Source: Solirubrobacterales bacterium
GTDB taxonomy: Bacteria; Bacillota; Syntrophomonadia; Syntrophomonadales; DTU052
Length of the DNA: 64,000 nt
Direction: 5' to 3'
NCBI GenBank assembly: GCA_050258755.1
Contig: JBLMZI010000003.1
Location: 77,131 to 141,130, forward strand
The notes under the pieces were generated by a model. It was not told where the DNA came from, ran no database searches, and saw only the letters and a list, made by a program, of their open reading frames with translations. Shown piece by piece: positions 6,805 to 23,787 of this stretch; position 1 is the stretch's first letter; each line of letters begins with the position of its first letter. The translations under genes were made by a program, and so were the position numbers.

Positions 6805-7632
6805 TTAGCATCGGCCCAGCGCGGCCTCACAGCGGCGAACGTCATCAATCAAATCGGCAAACAGCGCCGGTGTCAAGGATTGCGGGCCGTCCGAAAGCGC
6901 TCGTTCCGGGTTTTGATGGACCTCAATCATCAACCCATCTGCGCCAGCCGCCACTGAAGCCCGAGCCAGCGGCCGCACGAGTGAGCGCTTCCCGGAAGCG
7001 TGGCTGGGATCGACAATGACCGGCAGATGGGCCAGTTCCTTAATGAGTGGAATCGCCGCGATATCCAGGGTATTGCGGGTCGCCCGCTCATAGGTTCGAA
7101 TCCCGCGTTCGCAGAGGATGACATTGGGATTTCCGGCGTGCAGGATGTATTCCGCGGCCAACAGCCATTCCTCGATGGTCGCTGACATACCGCGCTTCAG
7201 GACGACCGGCTTGCTGATTCGTCCTGCTTCCTTGAGCAGCGCGAAGTTCTGCATGTTCCGCGAGCCGATTTGAAGAATATCGGCATATGAAGCGACCAAA
7301 TCGATGTCCCGGGTATCCATGACTTCCGTCACGACCGGGAGACCGGTTCGGTGGCCCGCCTCGGCAAGGATTTCAAGTCCTTCGCGTTCCAAACCGGCAA
7401 AGGCGTACGGCGACGTGCGCGGTTTAAAGGCTCCTCCGCGCAAAACGTCTGTTCCCAGCGCTTTCAATTGATCAGCAATCTCCAGGTAATCGCCATGGCC
7501 TTCCACGGCGCACGGGCCGGCAATAACGACCACCGATCCGCCGCCGAAGCTTACCGGATGGGCCGCAGTCGTTACGTCAACCAGGGTGGACGTATGGTCA
7601 TCCCGGCGGGCAACCAGCCGGCATTCGGTCAT
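6805..7632 (-). CDS. aroF: DAHP synthase (type I-beta, catalytic barrel only)
   Basis: [30 protein letters not shown] motifs; ATG overlaps trpA stop (TGATG). Confidence 0.92.
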
Positions 7633-8437
7633 CACACACACCTCGCTTCCAATTCCCTGCGGGTGGGGGCTTTGAGCAGGGCGGCTTCCCGTTCCAGGGC
7701 CGCGGGGATCGAGCGCCCTTCTTTCTCGGCTTCGACCATGACGTTGGCAAAGTGGCTGCCGACGACAAACCCTTCCGCGGTATCCCGCAGGGCCGCGATC
7801 TGTTTCGGATCATGAATGCCGAAACCAAGCGCCCGTGGAGCATCGGTCGCTTTGCGGACCCGGCCGAGATAGGAACGGATTTCATCCATCGGCAAAGCCC
7901 GGGTGCCGGTAACGCCGCGGACTGATACGCAGTAAACGAAATCCGGGTCGTGCTGCCCGGCAAGAGTCAGGCGTGCGTCCGAACTGCTCGGCGCCACCAT
8001 GGGAACCGGCTTTACCATTCGGCCAGCCATCGATCCGAGTTCATCCAGCGGCAGGTCGGGAATGATGATGCCGTCCAGCCCGACGCTGCCGATATCATCA
8101 AGAAAAGCGGCCGAACCGCGCGCAAAGACCGGGTTGTAGTAACAGAACAGGACCAGCGGGATTTCGGTCCGGGATCGGATTTTCGCCGCCAGTTCCAAGG
8201 TTTTATTGAGGTTCAGCCCCAGCTCGACGCCGCGATGATGCAAGCGTTCGATTGAAGCGCCGTCCGCAACCGGATCGGAAAACGGAACACCGAGCTCAAT
8301 CAAATCCACACCGCCCTGTTCGAGTGCGTCAATACTTTCCAGAAAGATCGACTGGTCGGGCAGGCCGGCCATGATGAATGCGATCAGGGCCTTTTCGTCT
8401 TTGGCGTCAAGCAGTTGAAAGAGATGTTGTATACGGT

Positions 8438-8441
<4 letters not shown>
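7632..8441 (-). CDS. trpA: Tryptophan synthase alpha chain
   Basis: [25 protein letters not shown] motifs. Confidence 0.97.
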
Positions 8442-9609
<1,168 letters not shown>

Positions 9610-9625
<16 letters not shown>

Positions 9626-10242
9626 AGCTGGTCTGCCTCCTTTACGCGCATAATAAGGGTTTTAATTCTATTCGGGTCTTTGCCGCCTTCCGGGAATTCC
9701 ACCCCGGAGGCGATATCCACCGCCATTGGCCTGACCGCTTGGATCGCCGCAGCGATGTTATCCGGGTTCAGGCCGCCGGCTAAAATGATCTTGTCCATGC
9801 CCGCAAGCGGCTGAAGCCATTCCCAGGGGAAGGATCTGCCGCTGCCGCCGCGCTGGGCTGCACTGCCAGCGGCGTCAAACAGGTAGGCTTCAGCCCGCCA
9901 TCGCTCCACGGCCGCCGGATCAACCGGGCCGGCCGGCGAAAATGCCTTAATGGCAGGAAGCTTCAACCGGTCCAGGTATTCGGGCGGCTCGTCGCCATGA
10001 AGCTGAACCATATCCAATCCGCAGGTCCGGGCCACAAAGCGGACCTGGTCCGGGTGTTCATTGGCAAACACCCCTACTTTCCTGATGGAACTGCCGGCCG
10101 CGCGGCTGATCGCGGCGGCCGCTTCCGGCGAACTCCTTCGCCGGGACGGGGCAAACACGAAACCGATCGCCCAGGCGCCGCATTCGCGAACGGCAAGAGC
10201 GTCTTCCAGACAGGTAATGCCGCAGATCTTTACTTTCGTCAT
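9610..10242 (-). CDS. trpF: Phosphoribosylanthranilate isomerase
   Basis: [26 protein letters not shown]. Confidence 0.96.
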
Positions 10243-11021
10243 GTGATCGCCTCCCGGTAGCCGGTGAGTGCTGCCAGTGCCCTGCCGGGGTCAGTCGCTG
10301 TGACCAGCGTTTCGCCGACTAAAGCCGCGGCAAATCCGGCTGATTCGAGTTGGAGCATGTCTTCCGGGCTTTTGATGCCGCTTTCACTCACCTTGAGCCG
10401 GGTGGACGGGATTATGGGTCCCAGTTCCAGGCTGGTGGCCAGATCGACGGTAAAGTCGCTCAGGTTTCGATTATTGACGCCGATCAGCCGGGCCGGGGTA
10501 TCCAAGGCCTGGTAAACCTCCTCGGCATTATGGGCTTCCACTAGGACGTCCAGACCCAGCGCGTGGGAGCGCTCGGTCAAAGCCAGCAGGCTTCTGTAAT
10601 CAAGAGCCGCGGCGATCAGCAGAACGGCATCGGCGCCGATTTCGCGGGCCTGATACAGCTGGATCTCGTCAAGTATAAAATCTTTTCGCAGGACCGGAAC
10701 GCGGGCTGTTTTCTTCACGATTTGAACATAGGCGGGATCGCCTTGAAAAAAGTCACGGTCGGTCAGCACCGATACCGCACAGGCCCCAGAACCGCCATAA
10801 ATACGGCCTAACGCGGCCGGGTCAAAATCGGGACACAGCACGCCGCGGGAAGGGGAAGCTTTTTTAACTTCGGCAATCACACCGACCGGGTCGGCTGCCG
10901 GCCGTTTCACCGCGGCCGCAAAACGGCCGGGAAGCGGTGCGGCAGCATCGTAGTCCGGGGTATAATCCTTCTTCAAAAGGGCGATTTCTTCGTTTTTTCG
11001 AGCCAGAATCCGCGCTAACAT
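10239..11021 (-). CDS. trpC: Indole-3-glycerol phosphate synthase
   Basis: IAEVKKASPSRG, SVLTD, LRKDFI, GVNNRNL, SESGI. Confidence 0.97.
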   Translation of the reverse strand: MLARILARKNEEIALLKKDYTPDYDAAAPLPGRFAAAVKRPAADPVGVIAEVKKASPSRGVLCPDFDPAALGRIYGGSGACAVSVLTDRDFFQGDPAYVQIVKKTARVPVLRKDFILDEIQLYQAREIGADAVLLIAAALDYRSLLALTERSHALGLDVLVEAHNAEEVYQALDTPARLIGVNNRNLSDFTVDLATSLELGPIIPSTRLKVSESGIKSPEDMLQLESAGFAAALVGETLVTATDPGRALAALTGYREAIT

Positions 11022-12037
11022 GCCGGATAGACCTCCTGACTGGCCCGAACCAACTGGTGCAGCGTATTCAGCGCGCGGCCGCTGTCAATGGTCTCGGCGG
11101 CGAGCGCGAGACAGGTTGCGTAATTGCCTTTGCCGGCAGCCATCAATGCGGCTGCGGCATTGAGCAGCACCACATTCCGGCGCGGTCCCGGCTCACCCTG
11201 CAGGACACCGACGATAATCCGGGCGCTGTCCTGGCTATCCTTGCCCTGCAGTGCGCTCAGCTCCGCCGGTTCGATCGCGTAATCCGCCGGGTTGAAATGA
11301 TAATCGAAGATGCCTTCCGGCTGAATGTCGAAAATCCGGGTTGTGCCGGTCGGGCTGATCTCATCCATGCCGTTGGCCGCGTGGACCACCAGCGCGTGCT
11401 TCCGGTTTAGCCGGGACATGGCCCGGGCAATGGGTTCCTGGGCCATGGGATCAGATACGCCCATGACCTGATAGGCTAGTTCAAACGGGTTGATCAGCGG
11501 ACCAAGATAATTAAACACGGTTGGGACCCCAAGTCCGCGCCGGATGGGGCCCATTTGTTTCATCACCGGGTGGTAGTGAGGGGCAAACAGGAAGGTGATT
11601 CCGGCGGTTTCCAAACACCGCAGGGCTTCATGCGGTTTCAGGTCTACCCGGACCCCCAGGGTTTCCAACACATCGGCGCTGCCGGTCTGACCGGTCACTG
11701 CCCGGTTGCCGTGCTTGGCGACCGGAATGCCGCAGGCGGCCACCACCAGTGCGGCCGCGGTGGAGATATTGAAGGTCCCCTTGCCGTCCCCGCCGGTTCC
11801 GCAGGTATCCAGGGTTTCCATACCGGTTTCAATAGTGACTGCGTGTTCCATTAACGCCATGGTAAAGCCAAACAATTCAGCTTCGGTTTCCCGCCGGGTA
11901 CGTAGGGCGGTAAGAAAGGCCGCAGCCTTGATTTCGGTAATGTCTTCGGACAACAGTAGATTGGCCGCGGTGTAGGCCTCGTCACTGCTCAGCGGTTCAC
12001 CCGCCACCACCTGTCTTAAATACCGATCGAATGTCAT
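11015..12037 (-). CDS. trpD: Anthranilate phosphoribosyltransferase
   Basis: DTCGTGGDGKGTFNIST, KHGNR, GSAD; ATG at 12037 after GAGGAG. Confidence 0.96.
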   Translation of the reverse strand: MTFDRYLRQVVAGEPLSSDEAYTAANLLLSEDITEIKAAAFLTALRTRRETEAELFGFTMALMEHAVTIETGMETLDTCGTGGDGKGTFNISTAAALVVAACGIPVAKHGNRAVTGQTGSADVLETLGVRVDLKPHEALRCLETAGITFLFAPHYHPVMKQMGPIRRGLGVPTVFNYLGPLINPFELAYQVMGVSDPMAQEPIARAMSRLNRKHALVVHAANGMDEISPTGTTRIFDIQPEGIFDYHFNPADYAIEPAELSALQGKDSQDSARIIVGVLQGEPGPRRNVVLLNAAAALMAAGKGNYATCLALAAETIDSGRALNTLHQLVRASQEVYPAC

Positions 12038-12098
12038 CTTTCTCGTCTCCTCTCGTCTCATCTCGTCAAAGCTGAATCTCGATTTTTCAGGGATACTC
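12038..12098 (-). promoter_or_regulatory. Internal TRAP-binding site overlapping the trpD Shine-Dalgarno
   Basis: Minus strand GAG-at-GAG-ac-GAG-ag-GAG-ac-GAG-aaag-ATG (five GAG at 5-nt pitch, 12064-12042) plus upstream GAG at 12080 and 12098. Confidence 0.75.
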
Positions 12099-12099
12099 C

Positions 12100-12693
12100 T
12101 TAATTCTTCTGCGGACCGCGCCATCGGCGGGCGATCGTCAGGAAGTTGGCCAGCAGCTTCTTTCCCTCCGGGGTCATGATCGATTCCGGGTGGAACTGGA
12201 CTCCTTCCACCGGGTATTCACGGTGACGGACCCCCATGATTTCGCCGTTTTCGCTGCGAGCGCTCACTTCCAGGCAGCCGGGCAGGGTGTCTTCGTCGAT
12301 GACCAGCGAGTGATACCGGGTGGCATCGAACGGCTGGCTCAAACCTGTGTAAATCGACGCGTTATCATGATGAATAGTGGAGATCTTGCCGTGCATCATC
12401 CGGTCATTCACAACGATCTCGGCGCCGAACGCGTAGCCGATGGACTGGTGCCCCAGACAGACCCCCAGAATCGGGTAACGGTTATAATAGGTGCGGACGA
12501 CATCGACCGAGATTCCGGCCTCCGCCGGGGTCGAAGGTCCGGGCGAAATGACGATTGCTTCAGGATCAAGATCAGCCACCGAGGCGACCGTGATCCCGTC
12601 GTGGGTGACCACGTGGACCGACTCGCCAAGCTCTTCCAGATATTGAACCAGGTTGTATGTAAATGAATCGTAGTTATCGATCATGAGTATCAT
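12100..12693 (-). CDS. trpG: Anthranilate synthase component II (glutamine amidotransferase)
   Basis: IDNYDSFTYNL, SPGP, GVCLGHQ, RYHSL, QFHPES. Confidence 0.95.
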   Translation of the reverse strand: MILMIDNYDSFTYNLVQYLEELGESVHVVTHDGITVASVADLDPEAIVISPGPSTPAEAGISVDVVRTYYNRYPILGVCLGHQSIGYAFGAEIVVNDRMMHGKISTIHHDNASIYTGLSQPFDATRYHSLVIDEDTLPGCLEVSARSENGEIMGVRHREYPVEGVQFHPESIMTPEGKKLLANFLTIARRWRGPQKN

Positions 12694-14194
12694 GTTCCCA
12701 TTCCTCCGCTTCCAGGACCGCGAGCATGGTCGCCCGCGCCTTGTTCAGGGTTTCCTTGTATTCGTCCGCAGGATTCGAGTCGGCGACAATGCCGCCGGCC
12801 GCCTGCAGGGAAAAGGTGCCGCTGCGCCAGACCATGCTGCGGATGACGATAGCGGAATCGATGTCGCCGCCGAAACTGACGTGTCCTACCGCGCCGCCGT
12901 ACAACTCGCGCGGGAGCGATTCCAGGGACTCGATGATTTCCATCGCCTTTTTTTTGGGTGCGCCGGTCAAGGTGCCGGCCGGAAAATTGGAGTCAAAAGC
13001 GTCAGCGGCATTGCGGCCGGGCCGCATCCGGCCTTCCACCGTAGAAACCAGGTGCACCACGTGAGAGTAGTTTTCCAGCCGCATCAGGTCGGTTACTTTG
13101 ACCGTGCCGGTTTCGGCCACCCGGCCAACGTCGTTGCGGGCCAGATCGACCAGCATCAGGTGTTCCGCCCGTTCTTTCTCATCGATCAGGAGTTCACGCC
13201 GCCGAGCCTCGTCGCGCACGGCGTGGCCGGAAAGTTTTCGGGTGCCGGCAATCGGGCGCGAAATGATGCGGTCATCCTCAACCGTGATCTGGATTTCCGG
13301 CGAAGCACCGAGCAGGATCATATCCTCGAGCTGGACAAAGAACAGATACGGGGACGGATTCAACTGGCGCAGGGCCAGATAGACCGACCACGGGGAAACC
13401 GTGCTTTTCCGGCTCCAGCGCCGGGAAATCTGCACCTGAAAAATGTCGCCGCGGGTGATATGATCCAGGGCCGTTTCAACCTGACGGTAAAACGTCGGCG
13501 CATCGGTGTGAGCCGTGAATTCAATTTCCGAGACTTCGCGGTCGCGCCGGGGTACCGGACGCGAAACCATACCGTCCTGACAGCCCCGGCCCAAGTCCAG
13601 CAAAGCCATAATGTCGGCTGCAGCCTGGTCGTAGGTGGCCTGATCGGCACGGGTCGATTCGATATACATAAAGATTTTCAGGACTTTTTCGTGACGGTCG
13701 TAAACGGCGACAGTACCTGGAAGAAAGAAGGCCATGTCCGGCAGTTCGCTGCGCTTTTCCGGGCGCCGCGGCACTGCGAGCAGGTCCAGACCGAATTCAT
13801 AGCTCCAGAAACCGATCAGACCACCGGTGAAATGGGGAAGATTCAGGTTTGGCGCGGTGACTCCGGCAATGAAGGCACGAACCGGGTCTGGTTCGCTCGG
13901 ACCGGTTGCGCGGGTCACAAACAGCGGATTCAGGCCAATGATCGAATAGCGTGCGTTCCGGTCTCCAGCCAGGCTTTCCAGCAAGGCCGAAGGTCCCTCG
14001 GGCCGCAGCCGTTCGTAAAAGAGGGTGACGTCGAAATGGTCGATCCGGGCCGCACTGTAAACCACCGCGTAATCATATGCGGCAGCATCGGCCAGGAACG
14101 CCGTAAAAGAAGGCAGAACAACGGGATCGGGGGAAGACAAACAAAAGCCAGCACCCGAAAATGTGCTGGCCTTAGAAAGCTCTAAGCCGCTCAT
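12674..14194 (-). CDS. trpE: Anthranilate synthase component I (start either ATG 14194 or TTG 14140)
   Basis: LLES, NPSPY, PIAGT, KERAEHLMLVDLARND, FPAGTLTGAPK motifs. Confidence 0.93.
   Translation of the reverse strand: MSGLELSKASTFSGAGFCLSSPDPVVLPSFTAFLADAAAYDYAVVYSAARIDHFDVTLFYERLRPEGPSALLESLAGDRNARYSIIGLNPLFVTRATGPSEPDPVRAFIAGVTAPNLNLPHFTGGLIGFWSYEFGLDLLAVPRRPEKRSELPDMAFFLPGTVAVYDRHEKVLKIFMYIESTRADQATYDQAAADIMALLDLGRGCQDGMVSRPVPRRDREVSEIEFTAHTDAPTFYRQVETALDHITRGDIFQVQISRRWSRKSTVSPWSVYLALRQLNPSPYLFFVQLEDMILLGASPEIQITVEDDRIISRPIAGTRKLSGHAVRDEARRRELLIDEKERAEHLMLVDLARNDVGRVAETGTVKVTDLMRLENYSHVVHLVSTVEGRMRPGRNAADAFDSNFPAGTLTGAPKKKAMEIIESLESLPRELYGGAVGHVSFGGDIDSAIVIRSMVWRSGTFSLQAAGGIVADSNPADEYKETLNKARATMLAVLEAEEWEHDTHDR
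14139..14173 (-). terminator. trp attenuator terminator
   Basis: Minus strand aagGCCAGCAC-attttcgg-GTGCTGGC-ttttgttt directly downstream of the (G/U)AG array. Confidence 0.85.
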
Positions 14195-14239
14195 CTCAAG
14201 ACTCACCTCAACTCAACTAAACTAAACTCATCTCAGCTC
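14182..14239 (-). promoter_or_regulatory. TRAP-binding site, 11 (G/U)AG repeats
   Basis: GAG ct GAG at GAG tt TAG tt TAG tt GAG tt GAG gt GAG tctt GAG at GAG cggct TAG; mtrB present in window. Confidence 0.92.
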
Positions 14240-14283
14240 ATGATATGCAATTGAACCGCAGCCTCATGCCGCAGCTTGCTTTT

Positions 14284-14312
14284 ATCTTAAGGGCCGGCTC
14301 GCTGGCTGTCAA
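14284..14312 (-). promoter_or_regulatory. Sigma-A promoter of the trp operon, followed by a 5' stem-loop
   Basis: TTGACA-17 nt-TAAGAT; downstream AGCUGCGGC-augag-GCUGCGGUU hairpin. Confidence 0.85.
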
Positions 14313-14327
14313 CGAAAAATTTCACAC

Positions 14328-14361
14328 AAAAAAGCCGGCATCTCTTGAAGACGCCGGCTTT
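14328..14361 (-). terminator. Intrinsic terminator of the radical SAM gene
   Basis: aaaaaagccggc...gccggcttt. Confidence 0.8.
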
Positions 14362-14372
14362 CAAAGAATTGT

Positions 14373-16142
14373 TTAGAACTCAAATCTAGGAACCGGGCAA
14401 TTGTACTTTTCCAGGGCCGACTGCAGCTTGGCTCCCAGATTCGGCTGATGAGGAAACTTGATTTGTACGCTGCGCGCCTGGGATGCCAGCTGGTTCATTT
14501 TTACGATGAACTTCTTCAAGGCTTCCTCGGAAGCAAAGCTGACCTGCTCGATGTTGATGGTTAAATCCAGCGAGCAGGAAGGCAGGCAGCCGCGGAGTGT
14601 CCTGAACGTTTCCGAAAGGGTGAACCCATTCAGATAACCTTTGAGATTGACCATGAGACCGCCGTTATCTTCGAAGATCTCAAGATCCATCAATCGTTCA
14701 AAAGAGACATAGCGAAAGTGTTTCATCTTGAAAGTTTCAATGCTCTTTGCCAGCCTGAGCCGGGCCGGAAGCATCTGCACCGCCGCTGGCGCCGTAAGAC
14801 CTCTCAGGTATTCGTTGAACCAGAGGTTGTCCTTTTCCCATTTCCGGACACCCCAGTAGCCGATGGCCCGAAAAGTGGCGGAAGCTTTTCCGGTAATCAT
14901 GAAATTTTCTGTAATACGCCGCGCGCTGTAGAATTTTTTCATGGCCCGGATGGTTTCCACCTGCAATTCCAGGGCCGACATCCTGGCAGGCTGGTAGACC
15001 ACATGATGACCGTCGTAAAGGCTCCAATCCTTTGTGAGAAGCCGCCCGGTGCGGTCCAGTTCTTCATAATCGCGGGTTCCGGGCAGCGGGGTCAGGACCA
15101 GAAACTGAATCGAATCGATCCGGTTCCGAATTGCGAAATCCGCGGTTTCTCTAACGGTGGTTACGGTGTCATCATCCGAACCGAGCACAAACATGCCGTG
15201 GACCAGTATTCCGTACTTGTGGAACGCCCGGACGGCGTATTCGATGTCTTCGACCCCCTGGCGCTTATTGAACCGGGCCAGGGTTTCAGGATTAACTGAC
15301 TCCATACCAATAAAAACCATTGAGCAGCCGGACCGCCGCATGAGATCCAGAAGTTCCGGGTCGCGGGCCGCGTCGGTGCGAACCTGAGCATACCAGGAAG
15401 CCGGGCCATCCTGGCGCTGGATCATTTCCCGCAGCAGCGCTTTTGACCGGGCCGGATTGGCAGTAAAGTTGTCATCGATAAAAAAGACGTTTTTCCCTTT
15501 GTAATGACGCAGCTCCTCCAGCACCAGTTCAGTGTCCCGGCAGCGGAATTTGCGGCCGAACATGCTGGTAACGCTGCAGAAACTGCAGTCGAAGGGACAG
15601 CCGCGGGAGGTCATGACCGGATAGGTCGAGGCTTTGTAACCGGAAATCAGGGAAAGGTCCGGCCTGGGATGGGCATCAGGATGAATCCAGTCAGCCGGCG
15701 GATTGTGAACAATACGGCCTTGTTCCCGGTAAGAGATGCCATTCATGTCAGCCGGAGACTGCTGCTTCCGGATGCATTCGAGGAGGGGACCGAACGTGGT
15801 TTCGGCTTCCCCGCGAACGACGTAATCGCAGTGTTCCAGGGCTTCATCCGGCAGGAAGGTGACATGCGGACCGCCCATCACCACGGTTTTGCCCAGACTG
15901 CGGGCGAACCTGGCCAGGTGATACGCCTCCAGGCTGGTTGAGGTTGTCGCCGAGATACCGACGACATCGGCATCCGCCAGATCGGCGACCTTGATTTCGG
16001 AAACTGTGGCAAACAGCACCCGAACTTTGTGGCCCAGACTGCGCAGCATGGTTCCCAGAAGCGGGAGACCAAGCCGCGGCATTTTCACGTTGCTGTACAC
16101 GTGACGGCCTGGCGCTCTTGGCTCAATCAGGGTAACGCGCAT
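14373..16142 (-). CDS. B12-binding radical SAM protein with C-terminal STAS-like domain
   Basis: N-terminal cobalamin-binding region (PRLGL..VMGGPH..GEAE), SRGCPFDCSFC CX3CX2C, FIDDNF; C-terminal LTINIEQVSFASEEAL; AAGGAGG SD. Confidence 0.88.
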   Translation of the reverse strand: MRVTLIEPRAPGRHVYSNVKMPRLGLPLLGTMLRSLGHKVRVLFATVSEIKVADLADADVVGISATTSTSLEAYHLARFARSLGKTVVMGGPHVTFLPDEALEHCDYVVRGEAETTFGPLLECIRKQQSPADMNGISYREQGRIVHNPPADWIHPDAHPRPDLSLISGYKASTYPVMTSRGCPFDCSFCSVTSMFGRKFRCRDTELVLEELRHYKGKNVFFIDDNFTANPARSKALLREMIQRQDGPASWYAQVRTDAARDPELLDLMRRSGCSMVFIGMESVNPETLARFNKRQGVEDIEYAVRAFHKYGILVHGMFVLGSDDDTVTTVRETADFAIRNRIDSIQFLVLTPLPGTRDYEELDRTGRLLTKDWSLYDGHHVVYQPARMSALELQVETIRAMKKFYSARRITENFMITGKASATFRAIGYWGVRKWEKDNLWFNEYLRGLTAPAAVQMLPARLRLAKSIETFKMKHFRYVSFERLMDLEIFEDNGGLMVNLKGYLNGFTLSETFRTLRGCLPSCSLDLTINIEQVSFASEEALKKFIVKMNQLASQARSVQIKFPHQPNLGAKLQSALEKYNCPVPRFEF

Positions 16143-16264
16143 TAACATTGCCTCCTTAGCATTCCGATTTTCTCTCATTTTCTCTCTGTATCGCGGCACC
16201 GCAAGCCGCGTGTTTCTATGCGCGGTTCCACATGATTATAACACGGTTATATAAAAACCGCCCG

Positions 16265-23100: not shown

Positions 23101-23528
23101 ACAAGAACGGCGAACCCTGGGCGATTCTAACCATTGAGGACTTTTCCGGCAAGAGCGAAGTGCTGTTTTTTCCATCGGCCTACCGAGAGAACGCGGCGAA
23201 TTTGAAGCCGGACAACGTGGTGATGATCGAAGGGCGCCTGATCAACCGAAACGAGGAAGTGAAAGTAAGCGGCCGAACCATCGCGCCAATCGCCGAATCG
23301 GTCGATAGTGTCCATATCAGGGTACAGGGTGACAACGGCGGGAACGACGGCGTGCGGGATCGGATGGTTGAGGTTTTGACCCGGCATCCGGGCACAATCC
23401 CGGTCTATGTCCACATTAAAGGCAGCAAGACCTTACGGATGAACGAAAAATACTGGGTAACACCGGACGAACCCCTGCGCGGCGAACTGCGCAATCTGGT
23501 TGGCGGGGAAAACGTTTGGTTTGCATAA
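20136..23528 (+). CDS. dnaE: DNA polymerase III subunit alpha
   Basis: [40 protein letters not shown] fold. Confidence 0.98.
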
Positions 23529-23556
23529 CAACAGCGGGAAACGGAGGAAAGTGACA

Positions 23557-23787
23557 GTGGAAGACAGGACCTACGGCGAAGAATATGTTGTCATAAAGGC
23601 GCTCGAAAATGGGGTTACTATAATTGGGCTGACCCGGGGCAAGGACACCCGCTTTCATCACAGCGAAAAACTGGACAAAGGCGAATTGATGATCGCGCAG
23701 TTTACCGAGCACACCTCGGCGATCAAGATTCGCGGAAGAGCGGAACTTCTAACCCGGCACGGGAGGGTTGTCAGCGACGGGGAGTAG
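23557..23787 (+). CDS. mtrB: trp RNA-binding attenuation protein TRAP
   Basis: [50 protein letters not shown]; GGAGG SD. Confidence 0.97.

Follow-up and report, generated by a model that had tools for sequence, protein, structure and literature searches.

TRAP attenuation is a textbook case of regulation, known almost exclusively from work on Bacillus, where the leader is long and untranslated and where transcription and translation are controlled through two separate RNA rearrangements. The trp leader of B. subtilis is approximately 200 nt long, none of which is translated, and trpE starts approximately 70 nt past the terminator. Translation of trpE is controlled indirectly in this species, through a TRAP-induced hairpin that sequesters the Shine-Dalgarno (SD) sequence. 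At the B. subtilis genes trpG (pabA), trpP (yhaG), and ycbK, (G/U)AG repeats overlap the SD/start region, and bound TRAP blocks the ribosome directly. In Bacillus (Halalkalibacterium) halodurans, trpG is located in the trp operon. An open reading frame (ORF) that spans an attenuator is found in the pyrBI leader of E. coli, where it encodes a separate leader peptide. In the portions of the sources that treat it, the B. halodurans trp leader is described as compact and TRAP-regulated, with a weak attenuator and no apparent antiterminator, so that it relies on TRAP-promoted termination (PMC3064811; PMC3913778). The rplJ leader peptide of B. anthracis is described, in the part of the source that covers it, as being in frame with rplJ, such that it would form an N-terminal extension of the regulated protein (PMC4538822).

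The leader described here lies on the minus strand of a 64,000-nt window (the whole stretch of DNA that was analyzed) and belongs to a trpEGDCFBA operon. Sequence comparison makes it quite probable that this is a compacted TRAP-controlled leader, with the trpE initiation region nested in the TRAP site and the attenuator falling within the gene. The first gene, trpE, encodes anthranilate synthase component I (12674..14194; 506 aa from ATG 14194), and its product matches TIGR00564 with 439.7 bits, under the curated cut-off of 517.7. It is followed on the same strand by trpG (12100-12693), trpD (11015-12124), trpC (10239-11021), trpF (9610-10242), trpB (8438-9625), and trpA (7632-8441). The gene encoding TRAP, mtrB, is found on the plus strand between dnaE and pfkA, 9 kb from the array of repeats; its reading frame (23500..23787) matches Pfam PF02081 over 23578-23775 with 138 bits (E 2.8e-40). 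Unlike in B. subtilis, trpG is within the operon and anti-TRAP was not found in the genome, which is 95% complete. TRAP is encoded in 99 of the 125 genomes of the class and in 188 of the 401 genomes of a large sister phylum sample.

The first-pass annotation of this DNA had claimed a promoter, a 5′ stem-loop, 11 repeats, a terminator, an SD, and an ATG, all of which were found again at their minus-strand positions. The sigma-A-type promoter (14284..14312) consists of TTGACA (14312-14307) and TAAGAT (14289-14284) separated by a 17-nt spacer, with agreement at 10 of the 12 consensus positions; a promoter scan returned this one site against 0.4 expected from shuffles. Transcription would start approximately 8 nt past the -10 box. 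The leader RNA then folds into a predicted 5′ stem-loop (14247..14279; -15.3 kcal/mol, z -2.33, equaled by 4 of 200 shuffles), which presumably contacts TRAP as its counterpart does in B. subtilis. Downstream lies the predicted TRAP-binding array (14182..14239), composed of 11 (G/U)AG repeats with seven spacers of 2 nt followed by spacers of 4, 2, and 5 nt. The first eight repeats keep a 5-nt pitch (14239, 14234, 14229, 14224, 14219, 14214, 14209, and 14204), and the final three are GAG 14197, GAG 14192, and UAG 14184. Across both strands of the whole 3,412,790-base genome, this array is the sole chain of at least seven (G/U)AG triplets with spacers of 2-8 nt; shuffling the genome in 200-nt blocks gave 11 chains of seven triplets, one of eight, and one of 11. 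The minimum free energy of the leader as a whole is unexceptional (z -1.13), and an Rfam model scan gave scores far under the gathering scores, the best being L20_leader with 20.3 against 58.7 bits. A TRAP gene, 11 (G/U)AG repeats with mostly 2-nt spacers, and a 5′ stem-loop are features shared with the trpEDCFBA/TRAP (MtrB) system of B. subtilis (PMC3064811; PMC3913778).

The array also appears to hold the site of translation initiation. Repeats 7 and 8 form the SD sequence GAGGUGA (14203..14209), with a predicted anti-SD duplex of -13.1 kcal/mol, and the anti-SD core CACCTCCTTTCT is found in the genome. The proposed trpE start codon, ATG 14192..14194, is situated between and overlapping repeats 9 and 10 (GAGAUGAG), and the public gene call for the same genome begins the 506-aa TrpE at this ATG. 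The earlier placement of the best SD and the ATG within the TRAP array is borne out. GTG 14206, the start of the longest ORF, was rejected since it is without an SD and not conserved. An overlap of repeats with the SD and the proposed start resembles the trpG, trpP, and ycbK operators of B. subtilis. Those operators are without a terminator and control translation only, whereas the array described here is predicted to control a downstream antiterminator/terminator pair as well.

It had further been claimed that the trpE frame stays open through the entire leader. This was overstated, as a TGA is present at 14215-14213 and more stops occur further up within the array, leaving the frame open only from 14212. 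From that point, it spans the SD, the ATG, the antiterminator, and the terminator, comprising 24 codons upstream of TTG 14140, and it continues uninterrupted into trpE; no separate short ORF terminates at or ahead of the attenuator. An open stretch of 24 codons is not significant alone, with approximately a one-in-three chance as estimated from stop-codon frequency, and the significance of the open frame comes only from relatives. The open frame could be accidental, as it would be if this were a conventional compact attenuator with an untranslated leader and with trpE starting from TTG 14140 or another post-terminator codon. TTG 14140 (14138..14140) lies within the U tract and shares the trpE frame; 11 nt upstream of it stands a weak GGGUG, which the first-pass annotation had named as its SD. 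The AlphaFold model of TrpE agrees with a start at ATG 14194, in that pLDDT stays under 50 over residues 1-22 and secondary structure first appears as a helix spanning residues 30-39. It would agree with TTG 14140 as well. Since the predicted fold starts only at approximately residue 30, a TrpE begun at codon 19 would be intact, and TTG 14140 could be the sole start or an additional one. However, its SD duplex reaches only -6.2 kcal/mol compared to -13.1 kcal/mol at ATG 14194.

Comparison within the class bears directly on this choice. The sample comprised the 32 of 125 class genomes with this TrpE at E <= 1e-90, of which 30 leaders (17 genera, 3 families) were readable and two were cut by contig ends. 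Stops or frameshifts in orthologous leaders had been named as the sign of a conventional attenuator. In all 30 readable leaders, the SD is followed by an ATG in the last repeats that is in frame with trpE, and none has a stop or frameshift in between, though the leaders are related within the class, so that fewer than 30 of these observations are independent. The ATG is found in the context GAGAUGAG in most class leaders, UAGAUGAG in L112, and AUGAUGAG in L119 and L121, and the equivalent of the SD (mostly GAGGAG) is located 8-12 nt upstream in the 29 relatives. From the ATG to +66 nt, stops occur in frame 0 in none of 31 leaders and in frame +2 in 27 of 31. Over codons 20-36, the leaders with a stop number 0 of 30 in frame 0, 11 of 30 in frame +1, and 23 of 30 in frame +2. 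All length changes between the leaders are multiples of three. Most leaders (24 of 31 as detected) place the hairpin 21 or 24 nt from the ATG; the hairpin itself measures 24 or 21 nt, and the U tract generally follows the ATG at 45 or 48 nt.

The initiation signals follow the same pattern. At the array ATG, class leaders form SD duplexes with a median energy of -9.9 kcal/mol (range -8.6 to -13.5), whereas the median for the best in-frame start further downstream is -5.0 kcal/mol; the array ATG is superior in 31 of 31 leaders, with near-equal downstream SDs in three relatives (L109, -10.3; L014, -9.5; L018, -9.2). In 17 of 32 leaders, codon 18 or 19 is a TTG, as a conventional start would allow. 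However, 13 of 32 leaders contain no ATG, GTG, or TTG at codons 16-25, and in eight relatives (L013, L016-L019, L117, L118, and L120) the hairpin is followed directly by the conserved TrpE core. Residue conservation over codons 1-19 (MS.., AGF) is a consequence of constraints at the RNA level and is not independent evidence of translation. A codon-position substitution analysis of codons 1-19 was dropped, as it is confounded by the same RNA-structure constraints.

Arrays outside the class served as a control, for which 120 of 124 listed TrpE upstream regions were covered and 55 contained arrays of at least seven repeats. In 43 of the 55, the layout is conventional, with array, terminator, strong SD, and start in that order, which makes the conventional arrangement the majority layout of the wider phylum. 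Seven others have a downstream start with the terminator not found, three are embedded and carry the terminator within the ORF, and two (L144 and L186) are embedded without a terminator. The conventional compact leaders of the same phylum resemble those of the class in their repeats, their distance from array to terminator, and their hairpin type (CCAGYRCUCAUUUGAGYRCUGG-U tract); they differ in having in-frame stops, a strong SD, and a start 20-90 nt past the terminator. The motif xAGATGAG is present in 28 of the 43 conventional leaders, where its ATG is distributed over frames 0, +1, and +2 as 9, 8, and 11, i.e., at random. In only one of these 28 does the ATG share the trpE frame with no intervening stop, compared to all 30 readable leaders of the class. 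In addition, the post-terminator SDs of the conventional leaders (-8.9 to -18.5 kcal/mol) are missing in the class, where the downstream median is the -5.0 kcal/mol given above. A conventional attenuator with an accidental open frame is thus distinctly improbable for this leader. These comparisons suggest that trpE translation most likely begins at the in-array ATG 14194, which would place the terminator inside the reading frame, while TTG 14140, with its weak SD and a codon that is not conserved, is unlikely to be the actual start.

The predicted attenuator itself is an intrinsic terminator at 14138..14173 (stem 14173-14144, core 14170-14147; -17.7 kcal/mol, z -4.58), the fold of which is matched by 0 of 200 shuffles. 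Its arms GCCAGCAC (14170-14163) and GUGCUGGC (14154-14147) pair ahead of an interrupted U tract, UUUUGUUUG (14146-14138), and it corresponds to approximately codons 8-19 of the frame read from ATG 14194. The pairing is maintained across the class: in an alignment of 31 leaders, 97.9% of cells are paired, four of the eight pairs show compensatory changes, and the covariation score is reached by 0 of 500 shuffles. One could propose instead that TRAP controls translation only and that no regulated terminator exists, with the hairpin and U tract contributing to mRNA structure or stability. The U tract is interrupted in this genome and poor in the nearest relative, L003 (AUUAGUUUG); a simple terminator scan found one terminator against 1.2 expected from shuffles, which is not above background; and the start-overlapping arrays L144 and L186 show that such arrays occur without a terminator elsewhere in the phylum. 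Nevertheless, the covarying hairpin is always followed by a U-rich tract in the class alignment, and in the 43 conventional leaders this same pair of elements stands at the attenuator position. A mutually exclusive antiterminator would also be purposeless under translation-only control. TRAP attenuators of Bacillus are typically described as having weak stems and interrupted U tracts (PMC3913778). Control of translation alone is accordingly very improbable, and a regulated terminator is the preferred reading of the hairpin.

The first-pass annotation had also described a short antiterminator. Such a structure is predicted here as well, but as the inner portion of a longer one (14155..14200; -14.3 kcal/mol, z -1.75 to -1.9), in which the AUG takes part in the outer helix (GAGAUG/CAUUUU). 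The inner helix pairs GGCUUAGAG with CUCUAAG.CC, and the inner hairpin pairs GGCUUAGA with UCUAAGCC; in total, six of the eight nucleotides of the terminator 5′ arm are taken up. The AUG region pairs with the terminator arm or loop through at least four pairs in 27 of 31 class leaders. Antiterminators of the class have a mean z of -2.0 (z < -1 in 22 of 31) and energies of -7.8 to -14.8 kcal/mol, near those of the terminators. Covariation in a single register is weak: 69% of cells are paired, compensatory changes affect two of 12 pairs, and the score is reached by 25 of 500 shuffles. The outer helix is offset by two columns between two subgroups (CAUUU and CUCAUUU), which were kept together for the covariation count because splitting would define the groups by the feature being counted. 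A compact leader, a weak attenuator, and trpG in the operon are common to this locus and the B. halodurans leader, while an antiterminator is predicted here only, as far as the available description of the latter extends. Similarity to the B. subtilis trp leader extends, in the portions of the sources that describe it, to an antiterminator, predicted here, with a 5′ strand within the repeats and a 3′ strand overlapping the terminator, to a weak terminator with an interrupted U tract, and to TRAP control, proposed here, of both transcription and trpE translation (PMC3064811; PMC3913778). The present leader differs from that of B. subtilis in that TRAP repeats double as the SD and the proposed AUG, this AUG belongs to the predicted antiterminator, and the terminator would form trpE codons 9-19.

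Based on this arrangement, the transcript would present a 5′ stem-loop and 11 repeats, of which repeats 7-8 would act as the SD and repeats 9-10 would carry the start codon, followed by codons 9-19 acting as the terminator. When tryptophan is low, TRAP would be inactive, and the antiterminator would arise from pairing of the GAGAUGAGC...UAG segment with the terminator loop and 5′ arm, allowing polymerase to read through. Because the antiterminator would sequester the AUG, translation would require its refolding or melting. After read-through, the more stable terminator hairpin could form 21-24 nt downstream of the AUG, freeing the SD and AUG, and ribosomes would then translate through the hairpin to produce TrpE with a disordered N-terminal tail of 20 residues. 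When tryptophan is high, the TRAP ring would wrap the 11 repeats, as in the established Bacillus mechanism, and remove the 5′ strand of the antiterminator. With the antiterminator lost, the terminator would form and the transcript would end at approximately 14140. On any transcripts that read through, the same bound TRAP would cover the SD and AUG and block initiation. Since the antiterminator pairs the AUG region with the terminator 5′ arm and loop, bound TRAP would hide the SD and AUG and release the terminator. The earlier proposal that one TRAP binding event could both block initiation and free an intragenic terminator thus gains support from the class comparison.

That proposal had been framed as a hybrid of protein- and ribosome-mediated attenuation, in which a ribosome from AUG 14194 would join the termination decision by masking the terminator while coupled to RNA polymerase or, like TRAP, by removing the antiterminator 5′ strand. 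Several features of the leader would suit such a role. The AUG precedes the hairpin by 21-24 nt in most leaders, its surroundings form the antiterminator 5′ strand, and the ORF passes through the terminator, as the ORF of E. coli pyrBI spans its attenuator. The pyrBI and rplJ leaders, as far as the latter is covered by its source, are alike in that terminator sequence is translated, but they are ribosome- or L10-dependent and are without TRAP and without a start codon inside the binding site of the regulator. Trp codons are found in the first 22 codons of 0 of 32 class leaders; with no Trp codons in the leader-encoded part, a stalling signal is absent and ribosome sensing is not supported. The RNA antiterminator predicted in 27 of 31 leaders would form independently of a ribosome. 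In addition, polymerase has only approximately 55 nt to transcribe between the AUG and the last base of the U tract, a distance that would leave little time for initiation, and transcription outruns translation in B. subtilis and may do so in this lineage. The hybrid reading is not supported, and participation of a ribosome in the termination decision seems a poor prospect. A somewhat broader variant, still unlikely, is that the class as a whole has absorbed a TRAP attenuator into trpE, such that an early ribosome would mimic TRAP and cause termination and a late one would translate through. The early ribosome would mimic TRAP because the AUG belongs to the 5′ strand of the antiterminator. If the attenuator had been absorbed in this manner, approximately 60 nt would encode TrpE codons 1-19 while serving at once as TRAP site, ribosome-binding site, and antiterminator/terminator switch. 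Its outcome would be set by a three-way kinetic race of TRAP, ribosome, and RNA folding, making it a hybrid attenuator without regulatory codons.

Under the preferred reading, that of a compacted TRAP-controlled leader, one class appears to have merged both TRAP controls into a single binding event, and this layout, which differs from the textbook Bacillus version, is probably common to the whole class. If true, it would represent a minimal natural dual-control design, with approximately 135 nt from transcription start to terminator and one RNA-binding protein. It would also offer a clean system for studying how an intrinsic terminator coexists with coding sequence and how ribosome loading competes with co-transcriptional folding.

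Additional observations concern the translated region. A search for protein homologues with TrpE residues 1-120 matched only the protein of the window itself, and a contig profile search with the TrpE alignment recovered at least 80 unrelated TrpE genes from many phyla, which is uninformative for the leader. A conserved in-frame ATG at codons 33-37, present in many f3 leaders, was rejected as a start: it lies inside the confidently modeled N-terminal helix, its SD is weak in most leaders, and none of 30 leaders has a frame-0 stop in the region upstream of it, compared to frame +2 with stops in 23 of 30. In a metatranscriptome run containing 41% of the sampled words, one 382-nt contig (13831-14212) bridges the terminator, which is weak evidence since DNA can occur in such libraries; the remainder of the 1.2-kb stretch is uncovered, which is uninformative. 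For annotation, the N-terminal 'MS..AGF.LP' tail of TrpE would be set by RNA structure rather than by protein function.

The minus strand of the window carries all the elements that the first-pass annotation had claimed for a TRAP attenuator at the trpE start. These are a TTGACA-17-TAAGAT promoter (14312-14284; 10 of 12 matches, with one site found vs. 0.4 expected), a 5′ stem-loop (14279-14247; dG -15.3, z -2.33), 11 (G/U)AG triplets running from 14239 to 14182, and a terminator. Eight of the triplets are at an exact 5-nt pitch, followed by spacers of 4, 2, and 5 nt. The terminator hairpin, GCCAGCAC/GUGCUGGC, occupies 14170-14147 and is extendable to 14173-14144 (dG -17.7, z -4.58 with the U tract), and the U tract UUUUGUUUG (14146-14138) lies directly 3′ of it. 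The array is the only chain of at least seven (G/U)AG repeats on either strand of the whole 3.41-Mb genome, and an Rfam scan of the leader returned no family match. The trpE frame had also been described as open throughout. This holds from the SD through the proposed start ATG 14194 and the antiterminator to the terminator. It does not hold for the rest of the array, as a TGA at 14215-14213 and further stops upstream leave the frame open only from 14212.

Within the window alone, the 24 open codons preceding TTG 14140, an alternative start in the U tract, prove nothing, and orthologous leaders were therefore collected. The class, Syntrophomonadia, comprises a single order represented by 125 species genomes, of which 99 encode TRAP and 32 encode a TrpE of the window's type (E <= 1e-90). 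Thirty leaders were readable, representing the window and 29 relatives from 17 genera and three families; the other two (L008 and L020) are cut by contig ends. All 30 share a layout of repeats, an SD, 8-12 nt, and an ATG within the last repeats (GAGAUGAG in most), the SD being GAGGAG(AG) in most and GAGGUGA in the window. In each, the ATG is in the trpE frame with no stop up to trpE, and a hairpin and U tract fall within roughly codons 8-19. The open frame through the hairpin, whose conservation had been suggested as a check, is thus kept in the relatives. Frame, length, and SD were measured on the class leaders together with two outside leaders of similar layout. Up to +66 nt from the ATG, stops occur in frame 0 of 0/31 leaders and in frame +2 of 27/31, and across codons 20-36 they occur in 0/30, 11/30, and 23/30 leaders for frames 0, +1, and +2, respectively. 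Every length difference among leaders is a multiple of three. The hairpin is 24 nt long (twice 21 nt) and lies 21 or 24 nt from the ATG in most leaders (24/31 as detected), with the U tract mostly 45 or 48 nt from the ATG.

The anti-SD core was found in the window's genome, and the strongest anti-SD duplex among in-frame candidates belongs to the in-array ATG in 31/31 leaders. Its median is -9.9 kcal/mol vs. -5.0 for the best post-terminator start; in the window, ATG 14194 reaches -13.1 kcal/mol and TTG 14140 only -6.2. Codons 16-25 contain no ATG, GTG, or TTG in 13/32 leaders, and in one family (f4) and one genus (g10) the conserved TrpE core starts directly after the hairpin, making the in-array ATG the sole possible start there. 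The public gene call for the window's genome is likewise a 506-aa protein from ATG 14194. In an AlphaFold model built on a 17-sequence alignment, residues 1-22 have a pLDDT below 50 and the first element is a helix at 30-39; thus, the RNA-dictated segment of TrpE would be a floppy N-terminal tail. The first 22 codons include a Trp codon in 0/32 leaders, which rules out a ribosome-stalling sensor. The predicted antitermination would need no ribosome, and the ribosome-mediated part of the hybrid attenuation initially proposed is not supported.

When each leader is folded as far as the terminator 3′ arm, an alternative hairpin recurs. In this structure, (G)AGAUG(AG), comprising the start codon and last repeats, pairs with CAUUU or CUCAUUU, which is the 3′ end of the terminator 5′ arm plus the first loop bases, and an inner helix takes the start of that arm. 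Pairing between the AUG region and the terminator involves at least four pairs in 27/31 leaders. The alternative hairpin has a mean z of -2.0 against shuffles with GAGAUGAG fixed (z < -1 in 22/31), and its energies, -7.8 to -14.8 kcal/mol, are near those of the terminators. In the window, the predicted antiterminator spans 14200-14155 on the minus strand (dG -14.3, z -1.75) and takes up six of the eight nucleotides in the terminator 5′ arm; the short antiterminator first noticed is part of this structure, but only its inner part. Covariation strongly supports the terminator (97.9% of cells paired, compensatory changes at 4/8 pairs, 0/500 shuffles as high). Scored in one register, the predicted antiterminator shows 69% pairing and weak covariation, a low score explained by a two-column shift in register between two subgroups.

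In the proposed mechanism, TRAP would wrap the repeats in the presence of tryptophan and thereby cover the SD in repeats 7-8, the AUG in repeats 9-10, and the final UAG (repeat 11). With the antiterminator unable to form, the terminator would fold and transcription would end at about 14140; on any read-through transcripts, initiation would still be prevented. When tryptophan is absent, the antiterminator would form first and RNA polymerase would pass, after which the mRNA could switch to the terminator hairpin, the more stable of the two. A fold of 14200-14138 contains the terminator hairpin, with the AUG region in a small local helix only; the hairpin begins 21-24 nt after the AUG. Ribosomes could initiate at this AUG and read on through the hairpin. 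The terminator is spanned by one RNA-library contig (13831-14212), which is compatible with, though weak evidence for, read-through transcripts. The earlier proposal that the start lies in the array and the terminator in frame, with one binding event having two effects, is well supported by the leader comparison; the embedded architecture is very probable, and the full mechanism is considered likely.

A natural control was provided by 401 genomes drawn evenly from the phylum Bacillota, with TRAP in 188 and TrpE (E <= 1e-80) in 126. Outside the class, 120 of 124 listed TrpE upstream regions were examined, and 55 contain arrays of at least seven repeats. Sorted by the position of the best SD and terminator, 43/55 are conventional, with array, terminator, strong SD (-8.9 to -18.5 kcal/mol), and start in order. 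Seven have a downstream start without a detected terminator, two have the start in the array without a terminator, and three (L200, L205, and L191) have the window's layout. L200 (G325) and L205 (G399) come from one genus of a different family and show an embedded start, a terminator in the ORF, and the peptide MRR..AHLGAGFF. L191 has a good downstream start as well, and its sister species is conventional. The embedded layout is kept across the class, in contrast to the conventional one dominant elsewhere in the phylum. The motif xAGATGAG is present in 28/43 conventional leaders, where its ATG is spread over frames 0, +1, and +2 as 9, 8, and 11 and has an open, in-frame path to trpE in just 1/28. 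Thus, a repeat-encoded AUG is a common by-product of GAG-AU-GAG. An AUG locked to the trpE frame and given an SD, with the post-terminator SD and start gone, is confined to the class and one other genus.

In some conventional leaders (e.g., L160, L178, L212, and L237), the array AUG bears an SD (-12 to -14 kcal/mol) and starts a uORF of 13-26 codons whose end lies within or beyond the terminator, possibly an evolutionary intermediate towards the fused form. In L144 (G210) and L186 (G332), a TRAP-type array lies over the trpE start and a terminator was not detected; control of trpE there is apparently translational only. A 16-repeat (G/U)AG chain lies 5′ of a TrpE gene (L171, G415:C8) in a 99% complete genome that gave no match to the TRAP family; the search overlooked TRAP, or something else reads the array. 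The class also has a second TrpE type (34-40% identical; L021-L026, in G036, G004, G031, G017, G038, and G006), whose leaders are T-box-like, with the GGTGGTACCGCAG motif, terminator, SD, and start and no GAG arrays; TRAP is still encoded in 5/6 of these genomes.

The system is rated as a variant of known TRAP control that differs in start and terminator placement. In B. subtilis, trpG, trpP, and ycbK have direct TRAP translational operators, and the window would join this type of control with B. subtilis TRAP attenuation in one leader. The TRAP gene, repeats, and terminator of TRAP attenuation are all found in the window, and the antiterminator is there a predicted structure with weak single-register covariation. 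The architecture departs from the B. subtilis type, in which the leader is not translated and trpE starts downstream of it. According to two papers, TRAP leaders typically have weak attenuators whose U tract is interrupted, and B. halodurans is without an antiterminator (PMC3064811, PMC3913778). A distant parallel is B. anthracis rplJ, for which a leader peptide sharing the rplJ frame is noted (PMC4538822). Full-text searches turned up no TRAP attenuator whose terminator lies within trpE, and an earlier mention is possible.

Downstream of the leader lie trpE, trpG, trpD, trpC, trpF, trpB, and trpA. The gene upstream of the trp promoter encodes a B12-binding radical SAM protein (14373-16199) and has its own terminator, and thus the trp operon has its own promoter. 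That terminator, a clean intrinsic one (AAAGCCGGCGUCUUCAAGAGAUGCCGGCUUUUUU, 14333-14366, minus strand), ends the radical SAM gene just before the trp promoter. TRAP (mtrB; PF02081, 138 bits) is encoded on the plus strand of the same window at 23578-23775, and a search of the genome (95% complete) for an anti-TRAP gene found none. Several families elsewhere in the phylum have mtrB about 1-2.5 kb from trpE on the same strand, mostly directly upstream (G427, G162, G304, G416, G438, G222, G138, G393, G509, and G449); the window differs, with mtrB 9 kb from trpE between dnaE and pfkA. A second TrpE/PabB-like gene in the window's genome (L027, G000:C6:383330-384463) is 37% identical, has an open frame of 772 aa, and is probably a fused PabB-type enzyme.
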